A stretch of DNA of 63,630 bases, the filler included, from Basidiobolus ranarum (taxonomy: Eukaryota): NCBI GenBank assembly GCA_040143965.1. It is 15 parts of 15 records of this genome, joined end to end, with 100 filler letters (N's around TTAATTAATTAA, not from the genome) between each part and the next. Parts side by side here need not be neighbours in the genome. Positions count along the whole stretch, not along the records: positions 12,782 to 16,939 come from JASJQH010002092.1; 14 more parts are not named here. One strand, given 5' to 3'. The notes below the pieces were generated by a model. The model was not told the DNA's origin. It worked only from the letters and a program-made list of their open reading frames with translations, and did not search any database. A program made the translations under genes and the position numbers. Shown piece by piece: positions 4,164 to 62,400 of the stretch. Positions within the stretch are counted from its first letter, which is position 1, and each line of letters starts with the position of its first letter.

Positions 4164-4263
4164 NNNNNNNNNNNNNNNNNNNNNNNNNNNNNNNNNNNNN
4201 NNNNNNNTTAATTAATTAANNNNNNNNNNNNNNNNNNNNNNNNNNNNNNNNNNNNNNNNNNNN
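4164..4263. other. Artificial contig spacer (first of 14)
   Basis: 44 N + TTAATTAATTAA (stops in all six frames) + 44 N. Identical spacers start at 8424, 12682, 16940, 21193, 25443, 29691, 33939, 38187, 42433, 46679, 50922, 55162 and 59398. Contig lengths fall steadily from 4163 to 4133 bp. Confidence 0.99.
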
Positions 4264-6143: not shown

Positions 6144-6232
6144 GAACCATCATTGGCACGAATGAAATTTAGAACAACTTGTTTATATACTTCAAGTATT
6201 TAATCCCCTTGGCTTTCAATACATAGCCCACT

Positions 6233-7810
6233 ATGAGTGAAGAAAAAAAGATCCAGCAGGACACAGAGGTAGATTATGAAGTAGCGGATCAACCCTCGCC
6301 TGAAGACATTAAACTACGCGTAGCCGGAAAAGTTCCCATTGCTGCTTGGTTTATCATCATCACTGAATTATGTGAGCGCTTTGCGTTTTACGGAGCGTCT
6401 CTCCTATTCCAACCCTACATGCTAAAGATGCTGGGATTTAGCAAAGGTACCGCCACTGCCGTAAACAGAGGCTTCCAGTTCATGGCATATTTTACTACCA
6501 TTCTCGGTGCCATCATTGCTGACAGATACCTGGGAAAATTTAAAACTATCGTCATATTCTCGCTCTTTTACATGATCGGTTTGATCATCTTAGCTCTCAG
6601 TGCCCTTCCTACTTCCCTTGATGGAAGCTTTGGAGTGATCGGCTACATCCTTGCTCTATATGCATTCATTTCCTTTGGTACTGGTGGCATCAAATCCAAT
6701 GTTTCGTCTTTTGCTGCTGAGCAAATTAAAGAAGGCCTTTTTGCCACCAAAACTCCAGGCGTATATGTTGACTCACAACTAACAGTCGAGCGAATCTTTC
6801 GATTCTTCTACTGGGCCATCAACCTTGGTGCTTTGTTGGGCCAGTTTATCTGTCCAATTGTGGCCAACAACTATGGGTCTTACCCCCTCGCTTTCTCTCT
6901 CCCCGCCATCATGTTTGTATTGGGACTGGGTATCTTCATTTCAGCCAAGAGATTCTACTATGTTAAGCCTCCCTCCGGTACCGTGCTCTCCAAGACCTAC
7001 ACATGCATTAGATACGCACTTTCCCACCGCAAAGCGCCTCTAGACAATTCCAAAACCAATGGCCCTATTGAGCATTGGTTGGATTATGCCAAAGTAGATG
7101 GATTTGAGTGGAATGATGCCTTTGTGGAGGATCTAAAGAAAACTCTACGCGCATCCTTAGTATTCTTGTTCTATCCCTTCTACTGGGCCTTGTATTACAA
7201 TATGTCGGATAACTTCATCAACATGGGTCTTACTATGCAACGTCCCTCCTTCATCAGTGGACCTGAGCAGCTTAATCTTGTCAATAGTCTGGTCTTAGTG
7301 ATTGCTATCCCTATTTTTGATACAGTTATCTTCCCAATCTTGAGAAGAATGGGATGTCGTCTTGGCCCTATCACACGCATTACTATCGGTTTCACCATTG
7401 CCACTTTAGCCTTTGTCTTTGTTACTGTTCTTCAGTCACAAGTATATAAGACAGGGCCTTACTATAATTTCACGGATTTGAGCAACTTGCCTGCAGGACA
7501 AGAGCCAGTGAATGATATTTCCATCTGGTGGCAAATCATTCCATTCATTGGGATCTCCATTTCGGAGATTTTCGCTTCGGTTACTGGACTTGAGTTTGCA
7601 TTTAGACAAGCCGCACCTGAACTTAAATCCGTGGTTACCGCTTTGTTCTTGTTCACCAATTGTGGTGGCAGTTTGATCGGATTGATCTTGGCCATTTGGA
7701 GTAACGATCCAAACTTCGTATATGTATTTGGAATTCAAACAGGACTAATGGGAGTTATGACGGGGATATTCTATTTCTTGTTCAGAAAATATGACAACAT
7801 CGAGTGCTAG
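6233..7810 (+). CDS. PTR2: POT/PTR family proton-dependent di/tripeptide transporter, intronless, 525 aa
   Basis: ELCERFAFYG (ExxERFxYY motif), GAIIADRYLGKFKTI (PTR2_1), GTGGIKSNVS, FYWAINLGAL (PTR2_2) and about 12 hydrophobic segments. Confidence 0.96.
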   Translation: MSEEKKIQQDTEVDYEVADQPSPEDIKLRVAGKVPIAAWFIIITELCERFAFYGASLLFQPYMLKMLGFSKGTATAVNRGFQFMAYFTTILGAIIADRYLGKFKTIVIFSLFYMIGLIILALSALPTSLDGSFGVIGYILALYAFISFGTGGIKSNVSSFAAEQIKEGLFATKTPGVYVDSQLTVERIFRFFYWAINLGALLGQFICPIVANNYGSYPLAFSLPAIMFVLGLGIFISAKRFYYVKPPSGTVLSKTYTCIRYALSHRKAPLDNSKTNGPIEHWLDYAKVDGFEWNDAFVEDLKKTLRASLVFLFYPFYWALYYNMSDNFINMGLTMQRPSFISGPEQLNLVNSLVLVIAIPIFDTVIFPILRRMGCRLGPITRITIGFTIATLAFVFVTVLQSQVYKTGPYYNFTDLSNLPAGQEPVNDISIWWQIIPFIGISISEIFASVTGLEFAFRQAAPELKSVVTALFLFTNCGGSLIGLILAIWSNDPNFVYVFGIQTGLMGVMTGIFYFLFRKYDNIEC

Positions 7811-7954: not shown

Positions 7955-8523
7955 CTAATTCATCTAAATCAATTTGCGAATGCTACTACTGTCAGTTCAG
8001 ATCCGTCAATGTGATTTTTACTCTTTAATATCTACTTCCATTTTTCTACATATGAATCAGCATATGTTCCATTCTAGATTCCATGGTAGATTCAGTGTAA
8101 CCAACTAATCGTGACTTACTATTATGGTCGTCATATTTGGATAGGTAACAGTTTTTCCTATTGCCATGGACAGTGTGATATTGAGATTATAATATATATA
8201 TACTGACCCATTACATTACCTGTTAGTATAATATATATACTAGCCTATCACCATCACCATCACCATCACCATCTCTATCCCTATCCCTATCGCAACACCA
8301 ACTGCTTCATTCTCATGATTATCGCGTCTGGTCATTTGTATGTGGTAATGTTCGTTATGCTACTACAAAACCTTGTGTTCAAAGAAGTCATCAGCCTGTC
8401 CCATGAGCCAAACAAAGAAAGAANNNNNNNNNNNNNNNNNNNNNNNNNNNNNNNNNNNNNNNNNNNNTTAATTAATTAANNNNNNNNNNNNNNNNNNNNN
8501 NNNNNNNNNNNNNNNNNNNNNNN

Positions 8524-9949: not shown

Positions 9950-10660
9950 TTCTGCACACAACCCCAGTGTTAGTTTTCTGTATTTCCACCAAAAATTATA
10001 AATGCTATATTTCTGGACAATAAACAATTATCTCACAAAGCTATTCACAACTTCACTTTTCTAAAGTTCCTCCAAACAGCCTATATTTTCCCAATAATGA
10101 CAGTATCCCCTTCTTTAGTGATGGTGTGCAGACCTCATAGGGCCAGGTTTTTCTGGGTAGGCTCCATGAAACTCCTGGCAAAGATCCTTAAAATTGGAAA
10201 GATTTGTGGGTGGCTCCCATGATTGATCATTTGTTAAGCATCCCTTCCAGTCCACTAAATATTGCAATTTACATTGATAAATTCTGGAATCTAGAATTTT
10301 GCTAACTTCATATTTAGAGTGTTCATCTACTAGGATTGCTGGGGGTGCATCAATGGATTGGCCCTGGAAGGTGTCTTTGGCATGTGGCTCTAAGTGAGAC
10401 ACATGGGATACATTGTGGACTTTGAAATGGGTTGGAAGTTCAAGGCCAAAGGCTACTGAATTGATTTGCTTAATAATCTTAAAAGGCCCTAGTCTTTTAT
10501 GATCAAGTTTATCACAAGGTCTAGTGGTTTTGATATTTTTCCGGAGTAGCCAAACATAATCTCCTGGCTTGAGATCTGGGCTGGGCTTTCTTTTCTTATG
10601 AGCAAAGTTCTGGTATTGGGATTGAGCAAGCTCCAACTCAGATATTAATTGTTTATAGAT
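9950..10660 (-). mobile_element. Ty3/Gypsy chromovirus 3' end: integrase C-terminus, chromodomain, PPT and LTR start
   Basis: KLDHKRLGPFKI (GPY/F), YEVSKILDSR...YLVDWKG...SWEP (chromodomain), PPT AAGAAGGGGATAC, then TGTCA at 10102. The lower boundary is approximate. Confidence 0.9.
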
Positions 10661-12681
10661 CTCTATCAAAAATAAAATTGATTTGCTCTGGATTGGATCC
10701 ACCATCCAAAATAGCAAAACTGTCTGAGGTCTGTCACAATATTGGTGGCTTGCAGTCTGCCAGGGATTTTTATGGTATAACAATGGTTTCTTGACACTAT
10801 TTTTATGGTATTCATACATGTTTAAATATTGATCCTCAAATTTGGCATCTGTTATTCAATATCCGGCAATTTTTGCAAAAAAATAAATTTTGAATGGCAA
10901 ATTACCAGGTTTACTGCTGAAGGAATTTGAATTAATATGCATGCCTTGATTTAGATATTTTAGGCTTTGTATTCCAGCGGCAATGAGAATCAAAAATACA
11001 AGAATCTCATTGTGCTTAGTCTCTACATATGCACATACTTCACTTATTAGACATCACTCAACAACATTAATATGCTTTACCCAAAAACTAATGATGAGGA
11101 AAATAGCTAAACATCTGAAATTTTGAATGGCACCAACACTTGGCAAATAGTTGGCTCTTGTTACCATTCACAATGAGAATGAGCTCTTGGATTTGGACAA
11201 ATTTCCATAGAGAATTCAGCAAATATATCCCCAACTTGCAGTCAATAAATGTCATGCCACAAGTAGATGTGTTATTGCTTGAATAGATTACCCCATGCCT
11301 AAAACAATAATAGCACATATCTTGATCTATCTCACCAAGAAGTCTGTGTTGTGGCTTTCCTAAAAATACCATTGGATTATCACACAGGCTAATTAGTCTG
11401 ATGATAGTGGTACTTACTCTTTGTCCATGGATTGGGCTTTGTTGCTGTTATTGTGCTCAAACAATGCAGAAACCCATGAGCACATTGAAAAGAGACCTTT
11501 GTTGGCAGATTACTATACTCTGGAGTCTCCTTAACCCATTTCATTACATTGATCACTGATTTTGCCATTACATTGCTAATCAGATTAGCATGCACTAATA
11601 CTGACAATTTAACATAGAGGATCATTTCACCACAGGTGTGCTCTATTGGGAACTCCCAGAATGTATAGCAAGGGCCTATAATCTCTAAGCATTATGAAAG
11701 ATGCAGCAGGGAATGTATTGAATACCAGCATAAATTCAGTCTATTTTCTTTAAACCTGTAATAAAGTTTTCATATCCAATTACAAAATCTTCACAGAGTC
11801 ACTGTATCTGCCTGAAATCTGCCAATGTGAGTTGATGTCATAAGAATATTCTAACAATATCCACAAATAATGCACAATGTTGCCAATACTTATCAGGCAG
11901 ATATCTTTTCAAAATTCCACTTGAGTAAATACAAATCCAATACTTCCAGGATTTGCATTTGAACAAACACCTAGATGAGTGGGTAGTGATGGGAGTCCTG
12001 GTAAAATAAGATGGTAGCTTGATGTTTTCAAGCATCTTCCCAATTAATTCAAACTTTGATCCTTTCTCAAATGGCTCATTCATATTAAAATTTCCACTAT
12101 ATAGCTGGGTAAGTAGTATTGGAATGTTGTTAAATAGTAAAAGCATAGTACCAGATGGGAAGCTCTGGCTCCAGCTCATCCTCTGTGGCAATATAATCTT
12201 AGGTTTATGGCTACTACCAAGTTTGGCATTAAACTGACTATTTGGGGTATTGGTATCAGTGATCATGTTGAAATCTCACCAGGCTCTTAATGGTACAATA
12301 ATGAAGTTTAGTGTTGTATTTGCATAGTAGTAATGTGTATGCCTGTTAGAGTAAACTCCATTGATTTGACAAAATCTAGAGCAAGACAGTGCATTGTGCT
12401 GGCAAAAACCTCCAAGCTTACTGATGGCAGAAGTGTCACCAATACATACAATAATATTAGCTTTAATAAAATATTTACCCATCTGAACCCCATTAGATAA
12501 CCATTCAAATTCCGCAATCAAAGGCTCCAACAAGCAATCTATAAGCACTGGTGATTTAAGTCCAGATCTGATGGAGAGTCACAAAATATTATGACTCTTA
12601 TACTGTTCGGAAGGAGGAAGATTTAAGTTCATTAAAATTATTGGCCAACAAGCCTTTCCAATGATGATGTTGTTTAGTGAG
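10661..12681 (-). mobile_element. CACTA/EnSpm (Tnp2/Transposase_21-type) transposase pseudogene with terminus
   Basis: WPIILMNLNLPPS, LEPLIAEFEWL, GDTSAISKLGGF, FKCKSWKYW and GPCYTFWEFPIE; many stops; degenerate terminus at 10661. Confidence 0.85.
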
Positions 12682-12781
12682 NNNNNNNNNNNNNNNNNNN
12701 NNNNNNNNNNNNNNNNNNNNNNNNNTTAATTAATTAANNNNNNNNNNNNNNNNNNNNNNNNNNNNNNNNNNNNNNNNNNNN

Positions 12782-13301
12782 AAGGAGGTATGGCTGGAAG
12801 CTTTCTTTGGCTAGTATTTTTCTCAGTCCGACGCCTCTATTGGGCTCACGATACTTTTCATTTCCAACCGACCAGTTACCAAGTATTTATATAGTATTTG
12901 TGGTTTTGCTTTAACACCGACACACCTACACCATCTGTGTACATCATAACTCTAAACTTCATTCACTTACTTTTTCCTTGTGGTTTCATTGCCTTTGATG
13001 TGAGGTCAATTACGGCTCCTCATACTACTATTGTCGAGGCTTTCTGTTTGTCTGACTTGTAGTTATTGAGGAGTGACAAAGGAACCTCTTTGAAAAAGCC
13101 AACATTAATGAAATCCTCCAAAAGAAACGCAGAGTCAGGTTCCAGTTCATGAGTAAAGATGTACTTCAAAAAGGAAAACGTATGTGACATAAAGGTATGA
13201 ACGTTAGCTACAAGTAACCTGAATAGTGGAACATATTATGGCTTCCACCCAATACAAGCGATTGAGCTTTTGACTGCTATAATCTTTAGAGGTGGTTCCA
13301 T
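12782..13301 (-). pseudogene. Fanzor (eukaryotic TnpB-like nuclease) relic, internally deleted and cut by the contig end
   Basis: Hand translation from ATG 13301: MEPPLKIIAVKSSIACIGWKP*YVPLFRLLVANVHTFMSHTFSFLKYIFTHEL...FFKEVPLSLL...*GAVIDLTSKAMKPQGKSK*MKFRVMMYTDGVGVSVLKQN, then after a frameshift ILGNWSVGNEKYREPNRGVGLRKILAKESFQPYLL. These match Mucorales-type Fanzor1 motifs as I recall them. Confidence 0.8.
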
Positions 13302-14551
13302 AAGGCCAAGAGAGAAAGCGAATTGACTTCTTTTTTAGTTTACGGATAGAACAGTTTGTTTAGCAAATACTAGTGAGAGTGTGGTGGGTATATAATCAAA
13401 CCAGACTCTCTACAAATTCCAACTCATCCACTTTGAGGAAACAAACACATCATTACACACGTATATACATATTGCGACTATCTCCATAAATCTGCACTTG
13501 GGGTATTCTATTCGAGTAGATAGCCAGATATTGCGTCTATGGATCACATAGATGATCCCATTAACCATAAACCTTGACTGCCGGTGATAATTTCAGAGCA
13601 CTCAAATACTTCTCAAAAAATATCGTATCTAAACTTTTATTATCCATATAACAACAAAAACTTCTATAGTATGTGCTGTAAAGGATAGTAGAGGTCAAAA
13701 TATCAACCTTTGTTGTGTTTAATTCGATTATATCGGTAGCCTTAAGCGGAATCAAACAATGATTCACTAACCTGACTGCCGGTAAATGACTGGATCAAGA
13801 ATTATATGTATACGCTGTATGCTTAAGTTGAATGAATAGTTACAAAACTCTTCTAATTCCAACAGAAAAGATAGATCTTGCAGACTTGTAGTAATGTGGC
13901 AAACAATCATTTTACTGCCTGCTTCCTAATCACATGAATACCGTTTTCCAATATTTGTTATTAGCCTGTTATCATCCATGTCACGTGGTTAGAGCATTTC
14001 GTCTGAGCACTAAAACTTGGTGCATTGATAAATCCAATCAGTAACTGTAATCAGTGGGACGAATTATGCGTGAGTTTTGAACTAACGAGTTACACCATAG
14101 ACCTCCGTGTGGAGACAACCACTCGCCAGTACAACTCACTCAGTAAATACTATGAACAGTATCATGTATGGTGATGTTAGTATGTTACGTTTGGGGCTAC
14201 TTTGAACCTGTGCTGATTCAAGTAATAATCACACATTCTGTTTCCTCTTATCCAAAATGCGTTGAACATGTGATCGAAATCTCCAATTTTAGCTGGAAAA
14301 TATCACTAGTGTGTGCTGTAATAGGGTTAGAGTATCCAGTAACAAGATGTTAAAAGTGATACATTTACTTGGGAGGGAAAAATTCAAGTTCACTCCGAGT
14401 GGAGAGATGAGCAGTCAGTAGTTCGTCACAATCTTGCACGACGATTGACACTAATATTTTTGTGGCAAAGGAGTGGGATAAAACATATTCTATGACTGAC
14501 TTACTTTATCTCTTTTAGTAAGCAGCGTTTGTTCACAAGAAAGCAAGCAAT

Positions 14552-14558
14552 TATAAAT
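14552..14558 (+). promoter_or_regulatory. Candidate TATA box of the guanine deaminase gene
   Basis: TATAAAT 44 bp upstream of ATG 14596. Confidence 0.45.
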
Positions 14559-14595
14559 AGTGGTAGTCTCACTGTGCATTATCATCAGTCCAAAT

Positions 14596-15963
14596 ATGCA
14601 TCTTTACTCACTTGCTCTTATTTCTGCCGCCTTGATTGGCAATATCTCGGCCCAAAATGTGTTCTACGGCAGCTTTGTTCATTCGGTGAATGTAACCAAT
14701 CTGGAGTATGTTACCAATGGTGTTGTTGCCGTGGACAAGACTGGAAAGATAGTTCAAGTGAAGGCCAATGCAAGCGCAGCCCAAGCTAAGCAAATAGCTG
14801 CTAATTATGGTGTGAGCCTCTTTCCTTTGGGTAACCAAAAGTTTCTCATTCCTGGATTAATTGACACTCATATTCACGCTCCACAATATGTCTTTACTGG
14901 CTCTGGTATGGATCTCCAGTTACTTGACTGGCTCAACACGTACACATTTCCTCGTGAAGCTCGCTTTAATGACACAAATTATGCTAGGGATGCCTATAGC
15001 AAGGTAGTAGATCGTTTGGTTCGCGGTGGGACTACTGCAGCCAGTTACTATGCCACCATTCACTTAGAATCCTCGAAAATATTGGCAGATATTGTGGAGA
15101 AAAAAGGCCAACGTGCACTAGTCGGAAAAGTCAACATGGATCGAAACTCGCCAGATTTTTACATCGAAAACACTGCCCAGAGCCTGAAAGATACTGAGTC
15201 TTTCATCCAATATGTCTTGGGTAAAAACAATTCCCGTGTCATACCTATAGTTACTCCTCGGTTTGTCCCATCCTGTACTACTGAACTGATGAAGGGCCTT
15301 GGTAGTCTTGCTGCCAAATATAACCTTCCAATTCAATCCCATCTCGATGAGAACTTGGACGAAATTGCTTGGGTAAAATCGCTTCACCCAGATCAACCTG
15401 ACTACACTTCTGTATACGACGTCAATGGATTGCTAACAAATCGTACCATCATGGCTCATGTTGTTCACCCAACAGATGCAGAGCGTCAATTACTCAAAAA
15501 GCGTGGTGCAGGAATATCACATTGCCCAAATTCCAATTTCAACCTTCGTAGTGGTATCGCTAAGGTTCGTCAGATGCTGACTGAAGGCCAGAAAGTTGGT
15601 CTAGGCACCGATGTTGCAGGCGGTTATGGTACCTCTATCCTTAACACCATTCGTACAGGTTATTTCGCGGCAATTGCTCGTAGCTTGGACTACCCAGGCG
15701 ACAACTACCTAAAATTGGCGGAAATTTTCTACCTTGCCACTCTTGGCGGGGTCGCTTTACTTGGAATGAGGAATACTCTTGGAAACTTTGTGGTCGGTAA
15801 GCAATTTGACGCTTTGATTGTAGATCCTCTAGCCCACGAATCTCCCATTGATCTATTCTCTCATGATGATGTAAAGACCATATTCGAGAAATTTATCAAC
15901 AATGGGGATGACCGCAACATCATTGAAGTATTTGTTGATGGAAAATCTATTCATCGCATTTAA
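14596..15963 (+). CDS. GUD1: Guanine deaminase (amidohydrolase superfamily) with an N-terminal signal-peptide-like extension, 455 aa, intronless
   Basis: PGLIDTHIHAPQY, TPRFVPSCT, QSHLDEN, HCPNSN and GLGTDVAGG. The first in-frame ATG is 14596; the ORF-track start at 14560 is GTG. Confidence 0.95.
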   Translation: MHLYSLALISAALIGNISAQNVFYGSFVHSVNVTNLEYVTNGVVAVDKTGKIVQVKANASAAQAKQIAANYGVSLFPLGNQKFLIPGLIDTHIHAPQYVFTGSGMDLQLLDWLNTYTFPREARFNDTNYARDAYSKVVDRLVRGGTTAASYYATIHLESSKILADIVEKKGQRALVGKVNMDRNSPDFYIENTAQSLKDTESFIQYVLGKNNSRVIPIVTPRFVPSCTTELMKGLGSLAAKYNLPIQSHLDENLDEIAWVKSLHPDQPDYTSVYDVNGLLTNRTIMAHVVHPTDAERQLLKKRGAGISHCPNSNFNLRSGIAKVRQMLTEGQKVGLGTDVAGGYGTSILNTIRTGYFAAIARSLDYPGDNYLKLAEIFYLATLGGVALLGMRNTLGNFVVGKQFDALIVDPLAHESPIDLFSHDDVKTIFEKFINNGDDRNIIEVFVDGKSIHRI

Positions 15964-16542
15964 GGATTTTTATTAGATATCTTCATTCTCTCAATATTGA
16001 ACCTAGCTTACATCAATTACTACAGCTTAAGTTTCAAGATAAAAGCATCAGTGAATTGGACAGGGTGCGGGTGTTAGTCCAAATGAATTTGTGCAACGGT
16101 AACTGCTTTCCTGAACCAGCAATGCATTAAAGTTATACTAATAAGCATGTGTAGTATTCTAAATAAGAATTAGTATATTGATTGATCATGTAGCACAACT
16201 GATTTCGTGGTAGAGGTATTACTAACTGAGTAATTGCTTCCTGAGTATTGACCCTCACCAGTCTAGGCTGGGGATTGGGATTGAGTTGAACTGGCTAATA
16301 AAATGAGTTTGTAGCTTTGGATAGTTGTTCATTGCACTGAGGCTCTGTACAGGGAGCAAGTAATTCTGGTAACCCTGGGTTTAGTGTTACCATGTGTTTA
16401 GTTAATGTAGCATCAAGCAGATTGTCTTTATTAGGAAAGCATCCGATTCACCGGTGTATCTTGTGAAGAGAAAAGATATAAAAACGAAGAGAGCTACTTC
16501 CAATATACCATCAACCCACCATTTCTAAACAACCTAAGCATT

Positions 16543-16939
16543 ATGAAGAGCTGGTCCATTCTTATTTGTTTAACTTTTCTTCTTCAAGCGATACTGGTGA
16601 TTGCTAGCTCTAAGGATGTCAATTATGTGCCGCGCACAAACAGACCTCAAAGGAAAGTGAAAACCTCTCCCGTACAAGTGGTAACTTCTAGCAATGGAGA
16701 CGTACAAGCGATGCTCAATCTAGTTAACCAACAACGTCAACAAAGTGGCGCTGCTCCTCTCAAACTCGATGATCACTTGGTACAGGCAGCTCAGAAGCAT
16801 ACCGATTATCAAGCTCGTGTTGGACAAATGACTCACGATGAACCTGGAAGACCTTTAAGTACTCGAGTTACCGAAACTGGATTCAACTGGAGAACTATCG
16901 GAGAAAATGTAGCCCAGGGCTTTACTAGTATCGAGATGG
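16543..16939 (+). CDS. Secreted CAP/SCP (YkwD-like) protein, 3' truncated by the contig end
   Basis: Signal peptide MKSWSILICLTFLLQAILVIAS; MLNLVNQQRQQSGAAPL, AAQKHTDYQA, MTHD and GENVAQG; TATAAAA at 16477. Confidence 0.9.
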
Positions 16940-55366: not shown

Positions 55367-58300
55367 GTACTAAGGAGTGATAATGGTTGAGAATACTGCT
55401 CCAAAGACTTTGTCAGTTTTTGTTATAAACATGGAATTAAGTACAAAACTACTTTACCATCTAATCCACAGCAAAGTAAAGTTGCAGAATGAACAATAGG
55501 ACCATAGTGGAGATGTCAAGATCTTTGTTACATCTTCAGATGAAAAGCAGGTTATCAAACCAATATCAGATGGCTGATATGGGTGAATTAAGTTCCTTTC
55601 TTAGAATCCTAATCAAGAGAAAAAAACCTAATCAGAGAATCATGCTGAATCTGTCTAGATACATCATAGACATCCTGAAATGCTTGAACATGGAGAATAG
55701 CAAGGCTGTATCAAAACCAATGGATCTCAATGTGAGATTAATCAAAACTGCATCCAATTTGGCTCAAAATAATTCAAATCAAGGCCAGGAGTTTCCTAAG
55801 CAATCATTGGCAGGTGGTTTTATATACACAATGCTTGGAACACATCCAAATATTACTGTGACAGTGGGAACTATGAGGCAATATCTTGAAAATCCAGGTT
55901 GTGAGCACAGAACTGCAGTAGAACAAATATTCAGGTATTTGAGGAGAACTGTAGATCTACTTTAAGGCTATAGTGATGCAGACTGGGAAGAAACCTGGAT
56001 CGCATAAGATCAACAACTGGGTATACTTTTATCTTTGGGCATCAAGCCATAACTTGGAATAGCAAGAAGCAACCAACCATAGCACTTTCCACTACAGAAG
56101 CAGAGTATATGGCTGCATCCACTACCACAAGAGGCTGTGTTGTTAAGGACATTGTTTACAGACTTTGGATATATGCAAAAACATGCTAGCACTGTATTTG
56201 AAGATAATTTGAGTTTTATTTCTTTAGCTAAAAACCCTACATTATATATTAGAACAAAACATATAGGTATTAGGTATCATTTAATTAGTGAAGCAATAGA
56301 GAATGATATAATTGAGCTTATCTATTACCCTACCAAAAAAATAATTGCTAACATCTTAACCAAACCTTTAGCTGAAGCACAACTTGAATTATTAAGATAT
56401 AAGTCAGGTTTAAGAGAAATACCAAAAAATTTGTTGAGTGGGAATGCTGAAATTAGGTAAGTAGCAACTGCTTATTTAATAGTTAGTTTATTCATATTTT
56501 GAGTATTTAGCACTCCATTCTGCCATTCAAAGATGTGTCTTTACTGCTCCAATAGATAGAAATATCAATTAGATCACTTTTGCCAATTTTGGCTATTTTC
56601 TGACATGTTTTCCCAATCACCTCAAATTTAACTCATGCGTAACAGGCATTTGTGTTATGATCTAGGCATTTCCAATAGCCCTCATACATAGTAAACTAAG
56701 AACATGACTTATTCAAATCAATTAAACTTAAGTGTCTAATTCACAAATCCAAATCTTGTCCACAACACTTCCAATTAAATCAGAAGATCATGCAGCACCT
56801 AGAAGAACATCCAGAAGGAGGAATAAGCCATAGAACTGGTGGAGCACTTCCAATGAAAATGTCTATGCATATGCAGCATTCTGTGACAAGCCACAGGCTC
56901 CAGATCAACCTCTGGAGTTTCCAGTATTGCAATTATGGGAAAAAGCAATGTCTGATGCAACTTCAGCACTCCAGGACAATGAAACATATGTTTCAAGTCC
57001 TTGACCATCAGAAAGAAAGCCAATAGGTTGCAAATTGGTTTATAAAGTCAAAAATTAAGCTGATGGATCCATAGAGAGGCACAAAGCAAGAATAGTTGCA
57101 AAAGGTTATTTCCATAATCCAGGAGTTGATGTTGATGATACTATTGCCCCAGCAGCTAGTTTTAGCTGCAATAGATCAATCCTGGAGCTCTCAGCTGTCC
57201 ATGACCTTGAATGATATGAAATGGTTTTAAAAATAGCCTTGATGAATGGAATTCTGGAAGAAGAGATCTATTTGGAGCAACCTGATGGATTTGTTGACCA
57301 AAAACACCCTAATTAGGTGTAGAAACTGCCAATACTGCTATATGGACTCAAGCAAGTATCTAGGGTTTGGTGCAACAAGATAGATACCTATTTAGATCCA
57401 CTGAATTGCAAAAAAGCACAGCATATTACAGAATTTAAATTAAACCAACTGGAAAAAAGATCCACATCTTGGCACTATATATGAACAGCTTGATTGTAGC
57501 CACAAATGATTTAGAAGCATTTGATCAGACAAAAAGCAGCTTATAGAGCCAATTTCAGATTACTGATAGGGGTGAATTAAGTTATTTTCTGGAACCCATA
57601 TTAAGAGAGATAAACCCCACTAGAATATTAAACTGATTAAGTTTAGAAACATCCTAAACATTGTAAAATGCTTCAATGTGGAAAATATCAATCCTGTATC
57701 AACTCCAATGGATTCCAATGCAAGTTTAATTAAATTTCATCTGATTTGACTCAAAATGAGTCAAAGCAAGGCCAGAAATTCCATTAGCAATCCATGGCAG
57801 GTAGTTCAATAGATACAATGGTTGTAAGAGATAAAAGAGTTTGGGGGACTCAAAAGTGAATTGGACAAGATTTAGATTTTGTGAATTAGACAACTGGGTT
57901 TATCAAATTGAATAAGTCCTGTTTATAGTTTGGTATGAAATAGGACTATTAGACATGCTTAGACCATAACAAACATGCCTGTTCAGCCTGGGTCAAAATT
58001 TGAGGTGATTTGGACAGGTTTCATGTAAATAGAGAAAATTGGTAAAAGAGATCTAATTGATATATCCATCACTAAGAGCTATAAACCCATGTTTTGAATG
58101 GTAAAATTGAGTGCTACATAATCAAAATATGAATAAACTAACTACTCACTAGTTAGTTGCTATTTATCTAATTTCAACATTCCCACTTAACTAATTATTT
58201 TGTATTTCTCTTGAACCTAACTTATATCCTGATAACTCAAATTGTGCTTCAGCTCAATGTTTGGTTAAGATGTCTGCAATTATTTCTTCAGTAGGGCAAT

Positions 58301-59397: not shown

Positions 59398-59497
59398 NNN
59401 NNNNNNNNNNNNNNNNNNNNNNNNNNNNNNNNNNNNNNNNNTTAATTAATTAANNNNNNNNNNNNNNNNNNNNNNNNNNNNNNNNNNNNNNNNNNNN

Positions 59498-62400
59498 GTA
59501 TTCTTTCTCAAATCTAAATCTGAAGCCTTAGCTACATTCAAGCACTACAAAGCAATGGTAGGGAAAGAAGCTGCACCAGAAATTAGGGTACTAAGGAGTG
59601 ATGATGGTGGAGAATACTGCTTTAAGGACTTTCTTAGTTTTTGTTCTAAACAAGGTATTAAGCAACAAACTACAGTACTTTACTCTTCACAGCAAAATGG
59701 AGTTGCAGAATGTGCTAATAGGACCATGATGGAGATGGCAAGATCAATGTTACCTGATCAAAAGTTAAGATACCAATATTGGGTTGAATCTGTCTCCACT
59801 GCAGTCTGTATCAAAAACAGATGCCTAACAAGATTGCCACAAATTCTGCACCATTTGAAGCCCCACATGGATCAAAACCAAGTGTGGATCATTGCAGGAT
59901 CTTAGGTTGCACAGCATATTGCCTAATTTCAGCTCAAAATCACTCTAAATTGAATTGCAAAATCCAAAAATGCATATTTCTTGGTTACTGTGATGGATCT
60001 AAGGCCTATAGACTGTTTGATAGCAACAATCATAAGTTAATTAAGTGCAGATATGTGATTTCTGATGAAAAGCAAATTTTGAACCTCTAATGACAGTTCT
60101 TGATCCAGAAAACACAACCAGCACTATTCAGGCAATGTCTGACAAAGGTGCAGCTGTATCTGAGCCTTATTCAACCAAAATTGCAGTTCCAATCAATCAG
60201 AAGATGATTCAGGACTCAGAAGATCATCCAGAAGGAGATATATGACAGGAAGCTGGTGGAACATTTCCAATGATGATGTATATGCTTATCAGCATTCTGT
60301 GACAAGTCCCAGACTCCAGTTCAAGCTCTAGAGTGTCCAGAATCAAAATTATGGGAGAAGCAATGTCTGCTGAGTTGTCTTCAATTCATGTCAATAAAAC
60401 ATGGGTTTTAAGACCTCTACCATCAGGGAGAAAGCCAATTGGTGACAAATGGGTCTACCAAGTCAAAAACTAAGCTAATGGAATGATCAAAAGGTGTAAA
60501 GCAAGATAGGTTATTCCCAGAAACCAGGAGTCAATTTTGATGAAATCTTTGCTCCAGTAGCTAAGTTTAGCTCTATTGGATTAATCCTGGCACTCTCAGC
60601 CATCCATAGCCTTGATTCACATCAAATGCATGTAAAAATAGCCTTACTGAATGGAAATCTAGAAGAAGAGATCTATATGGAGCAACCAGATGGATTTGTT
60701 GACCCATAACATCCTGATATGGTCTGTAAACTGCAAAAATTGCCATATAGACTCAAGCTAGCACCTACAATATGGTACAACAAGAAATATACCTTTTTGA
60801 AGCCACTAGAATTCCAAAAATGGTCAGCAGATCACAGTATTTACATCAAAACAACCAGATAATGGATCCTATCTTGGCACTGTATGTGGATGACTTGATC
60901 ATAGCCACAACTGATCTAGAAGCACTTAATCAAATGAAAAGCAGCTTATCAAACCAATATCAGGTGACTGATATGGGTGAATTAAGTTATTTTCTTGAAA
61001 TCCAAATGAAGAGAGATAAACCCAATCAAAAAAACATGTTGATTCAGACTAAATACATCCTTGATATCCTAAAATGCTTCAATATGGAGATTAGCAAGCC
61101 TGTATCAACACTAATGGATCCCAATGTGAAATTAATCAAAATTTATCCAATTTGACCCAAAGTGACTCAAATTATAGCCAAGAGTTCCCTTATCTATCCA
61201 TGGTATGTAGTACAATCTATACAATGGTTGGAACATGTCCAGACATTGCTTTGGCAATAGGAAGTGTCAGCCAATGTCTCAAAAATCCAGGATCTGAGCA
61301 CAAAGCTGCAGCAAAGCAAATATTCAGGTATTCAAGAGGAACTGTAGATCTAGCTTTAAAATAATCTGCTACTCCTGATGCATAAAATTTTGTAGGCTAC
61401 AATGATGCAGATTTGGGAAGAAACCTTGATGCTAGAAGATCAACAACTGGGTACACTTATCTCTATGGGAATGAAGCCATAACTTGGAATAATAAGAAGC
61501 AACCAATCATGGGACTTTGCACTACAGTAGCAGAGTATATGACTACCACTGCTACTATACAAGCAGCTATGTGGTTAAGTAAGTTATTTACAGACTTAGG
61601 ATACAAGCAAAAATGTGCAATTACTATATTTGAAGATAATCAAAGTTGTATCTCATTAGCTAGAAACCGAACATTTCATGCTAGAGCAAAACATATGAAT
61701 ATTGGAATCATTTTGTTAGAGAGGCAATAGGGAATGAAATAATTGAACTTGTCTATTGCCCTACTAAAGAAATGATAGCTGGCATCTTAACCAAACCTTA
61801 AGTTAAAGCACAATTTGAATTATCAAGATGTAAGTTAGGTTTAAGAGAAATAGAAAAAAAGTTAGTTGAGTGGAAATGTTGAATTTAGGTGAATAGCAAT
61901 GCATAATTTAGTATATAGTGTATTCATATTCTGAATACAATCACCACAACCAGGGAATCTCAGGCAGAACAAAGTTATGATTTATGCATGATCATAAGTA
62001 TGTTGAAATTAGTTAAATAACAACTCAATATTTAGTAGCTTGTTAAATCATATTGTGGTTATTTAGCACTCTATTCTGCCCTTCAAAAAGTGTGTTTATT
62101 GCTCTAATTGATTGAAATATCAATTAGATCACTTTTACTCATTTTCACTATTTTCTCAAAAACCCTCCAAATCATCTGTAACTTTCACCCATGCTTAACA
62201 GGCATGTTTGCTATGATCTAAGCATGTCCAATTGTCCTCTTTCATAGTAAACTATAAGTAGGACATATGCAATTCAATCAAACTTAAGTGTCTAATTCAC
62301 AAATTCAAATCTGGTCTAAACACTTGCAAATCCCCTAAGCACTTTTATCAGTTAGCACTAATAGGGATCATCTATTTGTATCTGCTCTATTAGCAGCCAC

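Follow-up and report, generated by a model that had tools for sequence, protein, structure and literature searches.

A stretch of 63,630 nucleotides of DNA from Basidiobolus ranarum (GenBank assembly GCA_040143965.1; the whole stretch is hereafter called the window) carries, at 14596..15963 on the plus strand, a complete and intronless gene of 455 codons and a TAA stop for a guanine deaminase paralogue that begins with a predicted signal peptide. The gene belongs to a Basidiobolus clade, clade A, made up of the window protein and P0002-P0006, the full-length members of which bear a leader; its sister in the same genus is a leaderless clade, clade B. We regard it as rather probable that the clade-A gene encodes a secretory-pathway paralogue of guanine deaminase that acts on guanine outside the cell. 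Characterised guanine deaminases are cytosolic, and to our knowledge the enzyme has been treated as a cytosolic housekeeping enzyme. An exported guanase, if true, would give fungal purine catabolism an additional, extracellular first step, and would link Basidiobolus molecularly to guanine-rich niches such as arachnid cadavers and the gut and faeces of herptiles.

The window consists of 15 parts joined end to end with 100 letters of filler between them, and adjoining parts are not necessarily neighbours in the genome. The gene lies within the part at 12,782-16,939, which comes from JASJQH010002092.1, and a tblastn search within the window found one guanine deaminase copy only, with no second.

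Enzyme identity and the N-terminal leader

The gene product scores 440.4 bits against the guanine deaminase equivalog model TIGR02967 (EC 3.5.4.3; cutoff 375.4), the match running over profile positions 1-401 of 401, and a Pfam scan returned Amidohydro_1 (E 6e-61) and Amidohydro_3 only, with no adenosine deaminase domain. Residues 20-452 match human GDA (2uz9) at E 1e-122, and the protein likewise matches yeast Gud1 (6oh9; E 1e-98) and E. coli GuaD (6ohb; E 7e-72). As a member of their family, it has in common with human GDA/cypin, Gud1 and GuaD the fold, an alignment over the full length, and the metal and catalytic residues. The alignment to human GDA and an AlphaFold2 model with a mean predicted local distance difference test score (pLDDT) of 93.2 and a predicted template modelling score (pTM) of 0.91 place the amidohydrolase fold in the predicted mature enzyme, residues 20-455 (14653..15960, plus strand, as are all features of this gene given below).

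Residue invariance was judged in an alignment of 45 homologues, in which H92, H94, Q97, R222, F223, H249, E252, H288, C310 and D339 do not vary; because all of these are present in the window protein, its catalytic motifs can be called intact. They include the metal-binding motif H92-I-H94 (14869..14877), the HxxE motif H249-L-D-E252 (15340..15351) with a metal ligand and the catalytic glutamate, H288 (15457..15459), and the strand-8 aspartate D339 (15610..15612). From what is known of the amidohydrolase superfamily we take H92, H94, H249, H288 and D339 to be the metal ligands and E252 to be catalytic, while Q97 and R222-F223, of the PRF motif, presumably contact the substrate. Judged by its sequence, the product of 14596..15963 is a canonical zinc-type amidohydrolase guanine deaminase which keeps all of the conserved catalytic and substrate-contacting residues. 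A first-pass annotation of this DNA had named the enzyme a guanine deaminase with intact metal and catalytic motifs; the TIGR02967 score and the human GDA match bear out the name, and the 45-sequence alignment the motifs.

Where human GDA, Gud1 and GuaD start a few residues before the first strand of the fold and have many cysteines (the family median is 8), the window protein has a 19-residue leader, two cysteines and sequons specific to its clade. It begins MHLYSLALISAALIGNISAQNVFYGSFVHS, and residues 1-19, MHLYSLALISAALIGNISA (14596..14652), form a predicted cleavable signal peptide with a putative cleavage site after A19 that would leave Q20 as the mature N-terminus. There is no D, E, K or R among these residues: M-H is followed by a hydrophobic region (h-region) from L3 to G15 and then by N-I-S-A, a layout that agrees with the short n-region, the uncharged h-region of some 7-15 residues and the polar c-region of Sec-type signal peptides. 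The mean Kyte-Doolittle hydropathy of residues 3-15 is 2.02, compared with 1.75 for the leader of the CAP-domain protein encoded by the next gene 3' of it. At a signal-peptide cleavage site, positions -3 and -1 are taken by small or uncharged residues, here I and A (I-S-A/Q). In the AlphaFold2 model residues 1-16 have a pLDDT below 50 and the first strand spans 19-32; since the first 16 residues are unstructured and the strand starts at 19, the leader is predicted to lie outside the fold, with cleavage at the edge of it.

The leader recurs in the closest relatives. In P0002 of B. meristosporus it reads MYLTSLAIISATLIGSISA followed by Q, and in P0003 of B. ranarum MRFLSLALLSAALVASADA followed by A; at the same alignment position the sequences are ISA/Q in the window protein and P0002, ADA/A in P0003 and ANA/A in P0004. 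Leader identity to P0002 (14/19) is near the 81% identity of the whole proteins. The wider distribution was surveyed in 299 family members that start with Met and whose alignment extends to the first strand, 82 of 381 having been left out as N-terminally incomplete or unaligned, by means of a simple filter for a hydrophobic uncharged stretch anchored by alignment to the first strand. In these 299 a median of 7 residues precedes the fold, and 13 of them have a hydrophobic uncharged leader, the window protein, P0002 and P0003 being three of the 13. By its region layout, its -3 and -1 residues and its modelled position outside the fold, the clade-A leader is a well-supported candidate for a cleavable Sec-type signal peptide directing entry into the endoplasmic reticulum (ER). 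A 19-residue hydrophobic leader with a small-residue cleavage site directly before the first strand had already been described in the first-pass annotation, and sequence, hydropathy and model agree with that description.

As to the start of the gene, a TATA-like box, TATAAATA, is found at 14552..14559, 36 nt 5' of the ATG, although in DNA of 37% G+C a match of this kind is in itself nothing out of the ordinary. The box holds an in-frame TAA (14554-14556), 13 codons 5' of the ATG. The next in-frame methionine after M1 is M105, which is past the HxH metal motif (H92/H94), so that, barring an upstream exon, M1 is the only start that gives the whole enzyme.

Paralogue clades, cysteines and sequons

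The closest matches to the window protein are P0002 (81% identity) and P0003 (77%). Clade B comprises P0007 and P0008 of B. meristosporus and P0009 of B. ranarum, which have short polar N-termini without a leader, are 54-57% identical to the window protein, and pass the guanine deaminase model as clade A does. Maximum likelihood trees (quick search, LG+G4), for which support was taken from the Shimodaira-Hasegawa-like approximate likelihood ratio test (SH-aLRT) only, joined A and B with a support of 98, with 99 for clade A and 100 for clade B, and nested A+B among fungi. A and B are sisters within fungi, and we therefore read the leader-bearing genes as the outcome of a lineage-specific duplication and retargeting, not of transfer; horizontal gene transfer was considered as an origin and is ruled out by this position of the two clades. 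The leaderless copies in B. meristosporus and B. ranarum are presumably the housekeeping cytosolic enzyme, and so the separate cytosolic paralogue for which the first-pass annotation had proposed to look has a counterpart in both species, its cytosolic role being presumed.

Homologues were also sought more widely, first among 1.84 billion representatives and then in a second round of searching, which brought to light the separate ichthyosporean and algal clade described below. A metagenomic protein that lacks its N-terminus, P0010, is sister to clade A; its contig was not recovered in a metagenome scan, in which the best locus was 44% identical to P0010 and the other loci listed were 34-49% identical. 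The models P0005 and P0006 of B. meristosporus are without parts of the catalytic core, and may be pseudogenes or mis-modelled genes. Together, P0002, P0004, P0005 and P0006 suggest four clade-A loci in B. meristosporus.

The two clades differ sharply in cysteine content. Whole-protein counts, for which 114 other best matches were used, give 1-2 cysteines in clade A and 7-8 in clade B, against 4-18 in the 114 other homologues (median 8, with none at three or fewer). The two that the window protein has, C227 and C310, stand in columns which are cysteine in 98-100% of 41 other aligned homologues. At the five variable cysteine columns, 150, 160, 251, 289 and 322, cysteine is found in 3/3 clade-B proteins, and S, S, D, V and A, respectively, in 4/4 of clade A. 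Of these replacements, D251 stands within the HxxE motif in place of the clade-B cysteine, and V289 directly after H288 takes the place of a cysteine that is present in 68% of the other aligned homologues.

Sequons for N-glycosylation in the window protein are NVT32, NAS58, NDT125, NNS211 and NRT282, plus NIS16 within the leader; the NVT, NDT, NNS and NRT of the first-pass annotation are read at 32, 125, 211 and 282. Two positions are specific to clade A. The sequon N32-V-T (14689..14697), at the end of strand 19-32, is found in 3/4 of clade A and, as NKT, in P0010, with 0/3 in clade B and 0/37 in the other aligned homologues, and N125-D-T (14968..14976), at the end of helix 109-125, occurs in 4/4, 0/3 and 0/37, respectively. 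The third, N282-R-T (15439..15447), is present in 4/4 of clade A and in 0/3 of clade B, where the residues are DKT, and is shared by 6/37 others. In the AlphaFold2 model N32, N125 and N282 are all at the ends of secondary-structure elements or in loops. The leader, the replacement of cysteines and the conserved sequons would each independently mark clade A as adapted to secretion, and clade B has none of the three, being without the leader, with 7-8 cysteines and with no sequon at 32, 125 or 282. The A/B pair thereby offers a clean natural example of a cytosolic enzyme refitted for the secretory pathway, in which a leader and sequons have been acquired and free cysteines have given way to other residues.

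Destination, substrate and niche

The course of events that we propose starts with a duplication within the Basidiobolus lineage, after which clade A would have gained its leader, replaced its non-universal cysteines and come to carry N-X-S/T sites. The leader would direct the nascent clade-A chain into the ER, where cleavage after A19 would leave Gln20, and the protein would be N-glycosylated. Because it has no propeptide, C-terminal retention signal or hydrophobic tail, it would be expected to reach the cell wall or the medium by default. Guanine would then be hydrolysed outside the cell to xanthine and ammonia, and nitrogen freed from this very poorly soluble purine, which is plentiful in arachnid excreta and cadavers and in reptile and amphibian gut contents and faeces, while the leaderless clade-B copy would keep the ordinary cytosolic role. 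Entry of clade A into the secretory pathway is well supported by the comparison of sequences; we infer the final destination, be it medium, wall or vacuole, and the role in guanine scavenging.

Several observations weigh against an exported enzyme. The first of them bear on the leader, and are mostly also points in favour of an alternative in which a cytosolic enzyme carries a leader that does not work as a signal peptide, with an mRNA that starts elsewhere or has an upstream exon, or with a hydrophobic N-terminus that is tolerated or acts as a membrane tether. The region ahead of the hydrophobic core has no Lys or Arg, and His2 only; the starts of P0002 and P0003 are those of computational gene models; and three clade-A models are without the full leader, P0004 starting MLSAALAASANA, P0005 MPPPLEHV and P0006 MYYGSFVHP. 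P0004 may be a truncated model, and P0005 and P0006, of 342 and 383 aa, are plainly partial ones. A possible splice acceptor, CAG at 14586-14588, stands just 5' of the ATG, and the DNA may be compatible with an upstream exon joined directly ahead of the ATG. Against a cytosolic enzyme, the leader is conserved in the window protein, P0002 and P0003, its h-region of about 13 residues is probably too short for a typical membrane anchor, and the alternative leaves unexplained both the replacement of the variable cysteines at 5/5 columns and the conserved new sequons. On this evidence we consider a cytosolic location improbable.

The remaining points concern what lies beyond the leader. The number of sequons is not distinctive: the window protein has 6, the 114 others have 0-7 with 3 as the median, and the leaderless P0009 also has 6. 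The number of sequons, several of which the first-pass annotation had listed, was therefore dropped as evidence for secretion, and what stands of the argument are the clade-A-specific positions 32 and 125. Fungi can import guanine directly via permeases, and an external guanase is thus not obviously needed. No purine-utilisation cluster is found among the genes of the window, which come from joined parts, and nitrogen-regulatory GATA sites 5' of the gene are not enriched (4 found where 2.7 +/- 1.6 are expected, with 31% of windows reaching 4).

Entry into the ER does not, moreover, establish release from the cell. The enzyme could instead be destined for the vacuole or another endomembrane lumen, and there deaminate guanine from RNA turnover or from a purine store; leader, cysteine loss and sequons would support ER entry equally in that case. 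Leader-bearing GDA-like proteins do occur in the green alga Tetraselmis (P0282/P0275), and algal vacuoles store guanine crystals as a nitrogen reserve, with GDA induced on nitrogen starvation, according to the accessible portion of one study (PMC12541418). The Tetraselmis proteins, nonetheless, fall in a separate clade and score 319 bits against the guanine deaminase cutoff of 375. In the Basidiobolus protein neither a propeptide nor a sorting motif separates the cleavage site from the fold, which begins at residue 19, and there is no indication here of guanine stores in Basidiobolus. A vacuolar or lumenal destination appears unlikely to us, if still deserving of attention.

A further compartment is brought up by the C-termini of clade A, which resemble a weak type 1 peroxisomal targeting signal (PTS1): HRI in the window protein (15952-15960) and P0006, HRL in P0002 and P0003, and HKL in P0004, with clade B ending otherwise. 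The next step of purine catabolism, urate oxidase, is peroxisomal. A histidine at -3 is not canonical for PTS1, however, and an N-terminal signal peptide would take effect earlier, while the chain is still being translated. We take the resemblance for a probable coincidence: aligned with yeast Gud1, the tail falls on the ordinary last strand (...VYQI) and is no addition to it; that the enzyme is peroxisomal seems to us hardly credible.

Supposing that the protein is secreted, its substrate could be some 2-amino-4-oxo heterocycle other than guanine itself, for instance a pterin, folate or a guanine that is oxidised or modified, and its role the degradation of a signal or pigment or competition with other microbes of the gut. 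A change of substrate is common in paralogues that switch compartment. A folate deaminase of ~40 kDa is secreted by Dictyostelium (PMC4794234, citing Bernstein 1981), and pterin deaminases are placed in the same superfamily (PMC13197243), as far as the accessible portions of these papers go. The TIGR02967 scores speak against a shift of this kind, being as high in clade A (440-445) as in the leaderless clade B (452-457), and Q97, R222, F223, H249, E252, H288 and D339 are unchanged. There is, in our estimation, only a small chance that the substrate is other than guanine in this way.

Arachnids void most of their waste nitrogen as guanine. The fit of the niche with guanine scavenging is circumstantial: Basidiobolus has been recorded in the gut and faeces of fish, reptiles and amphibians and on cadavers of mites, collembola, centipedes and spiders, in the accessible part of PMC7466969. 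The secreted guanase of the first-pass annotation thus holds up as a genuine enzyme with a secretory-type leader, and the conservation of that leader, the loss of cysteines and the clade-specific sequons add to it; extracellular release, and guanine from arachnid waste or iridophores as the substrate, would follow from these features by extrapolation.

Comparable enzymes and other genes in the window

The secreted adenosine deaminases of the ADGF/ADA2 group, which have a signal peptide, are alike in function as purine deaminases acting outside the cell, but they differ in family and substrate, and the window protein is not one of them. The Dictyostelium folate deaminase, both secreted and on the cell surface and ~40 kDa in size, strips a 2-amino-4-oxo ring of its 2-amino group; it differs in having folate or pterin as its substrate and a role in shaping a chemoattractant gradient, and could be compared by its description only, as given in the accessible part of PMC4794234.

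Signal-peptide-like N-termini also occur in a separate GDA-like clade that holds P0261 (eukprot Awhi_evm1s13725), P0272 (Sphaeroforma arctica SARC_09733), P0268-P0271 and the Tetraselmis proteins P0282/P0275. Most of these ichthyosporean and Tetraselmis proteins have 2-4 cysteines, and 20-70 extra residues stand between their leader and the fold; S. arctica has, in addition, P0037, which bears no leader and contains 8 cysteines. Their leaders appear to be of independent origin, because they form a clade separate from Basidiobolus clade A (support 99), and their substrate is less certain, because TIGR02967 scores of 299-320 are below the cutoff of 375. One could go further and propose that Basidiobolus exports a glycosylated guanase that mines solid guanine for nitrogen, from the excreta and cadavers of mites and spiders and from purine-rich matter in transit through the herptile gut, and that with the paralogues of the gut-dwelling ichthyosporeans and of the alga it defines an overlooked class of secretory-pathway guanine deaminases, acting in the medium or in crystal-holding vacuoles. 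We put this broader proposal forward tentatively, and hold it to be possible but on the doubtful side.

The amoebozoan Planoprotostelium fungivorum has a protein, P0067, that passes the guanine deaminase cutoff with 446 bits, starts MIRQLRQALCLLFLVRFLAG, a possible signal peptide, and has 9 cysteines; its leader may be an artefact of the gene model.

A literature search, thin on subscription journals, returned no paper for exact phrases that describe guanine deaminase or guanase as secreted, extracellular, periplasmic or secretory, and a looser search for a secreted guanine deaminase gave nothing relevant among the papers listed. Papers on Basidiobolus and guanine included none, by title or abstract, on an extracellular guanase. 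In the accessible part of PMC8778642, guanine deaminase is merely listed in a table of the M38 peptidase family. The Chlamydomonas paper on guanine vacuoles lists GDA1 and GDA2 among the genes that nitrogen starvation induces; neither "signal peptide" nor "secretory" occurs as a term in its main text, so far as this is accessible (PMC12541418). A naturally secreted, glycosylation-tolerant guanase might find a use in lowering the purines of foods.

The other genes of the window are for a POT/PTR2 transporter, a Ty3-type fragment, a CAP-domain protein, ribosomal L23, an EH-domain protein and copia-type fragments. The CAP-domain protein, at 16543-16938 on the plus strand (Pfam CAP, E 1e-7), has the leader MKSWSILICLTFLLQAILVIASS, and its frame runs into a run of N. 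Such runs are filler and not biology: there are 28 of them, each of 44 N (1232 N), paired and spaced ~4.25 kb apart (4164-4263, 8424-8523, 12682-12781, and onward). The POT/PTR2 peptide transporter (6227-7810, plus strand) is an uninterrupted frame of 527 codons with a match at E 6e-76, and lies ~6.8 kb 5' of the guanine deaminase gene along the joined window, in a different part; it is a further gene for nitrogen uptake, but shows no sign of being co-regulated with the deaminase gene. Remnants of mobile elements are found as a Ty3-type integrase C-terminus with a chromodomain at 10115-10855 on the minus strand, and as copia-type reverse transcriptase/integrase pieces at 55480-55965 and 59450-59905, both on the plus strand.

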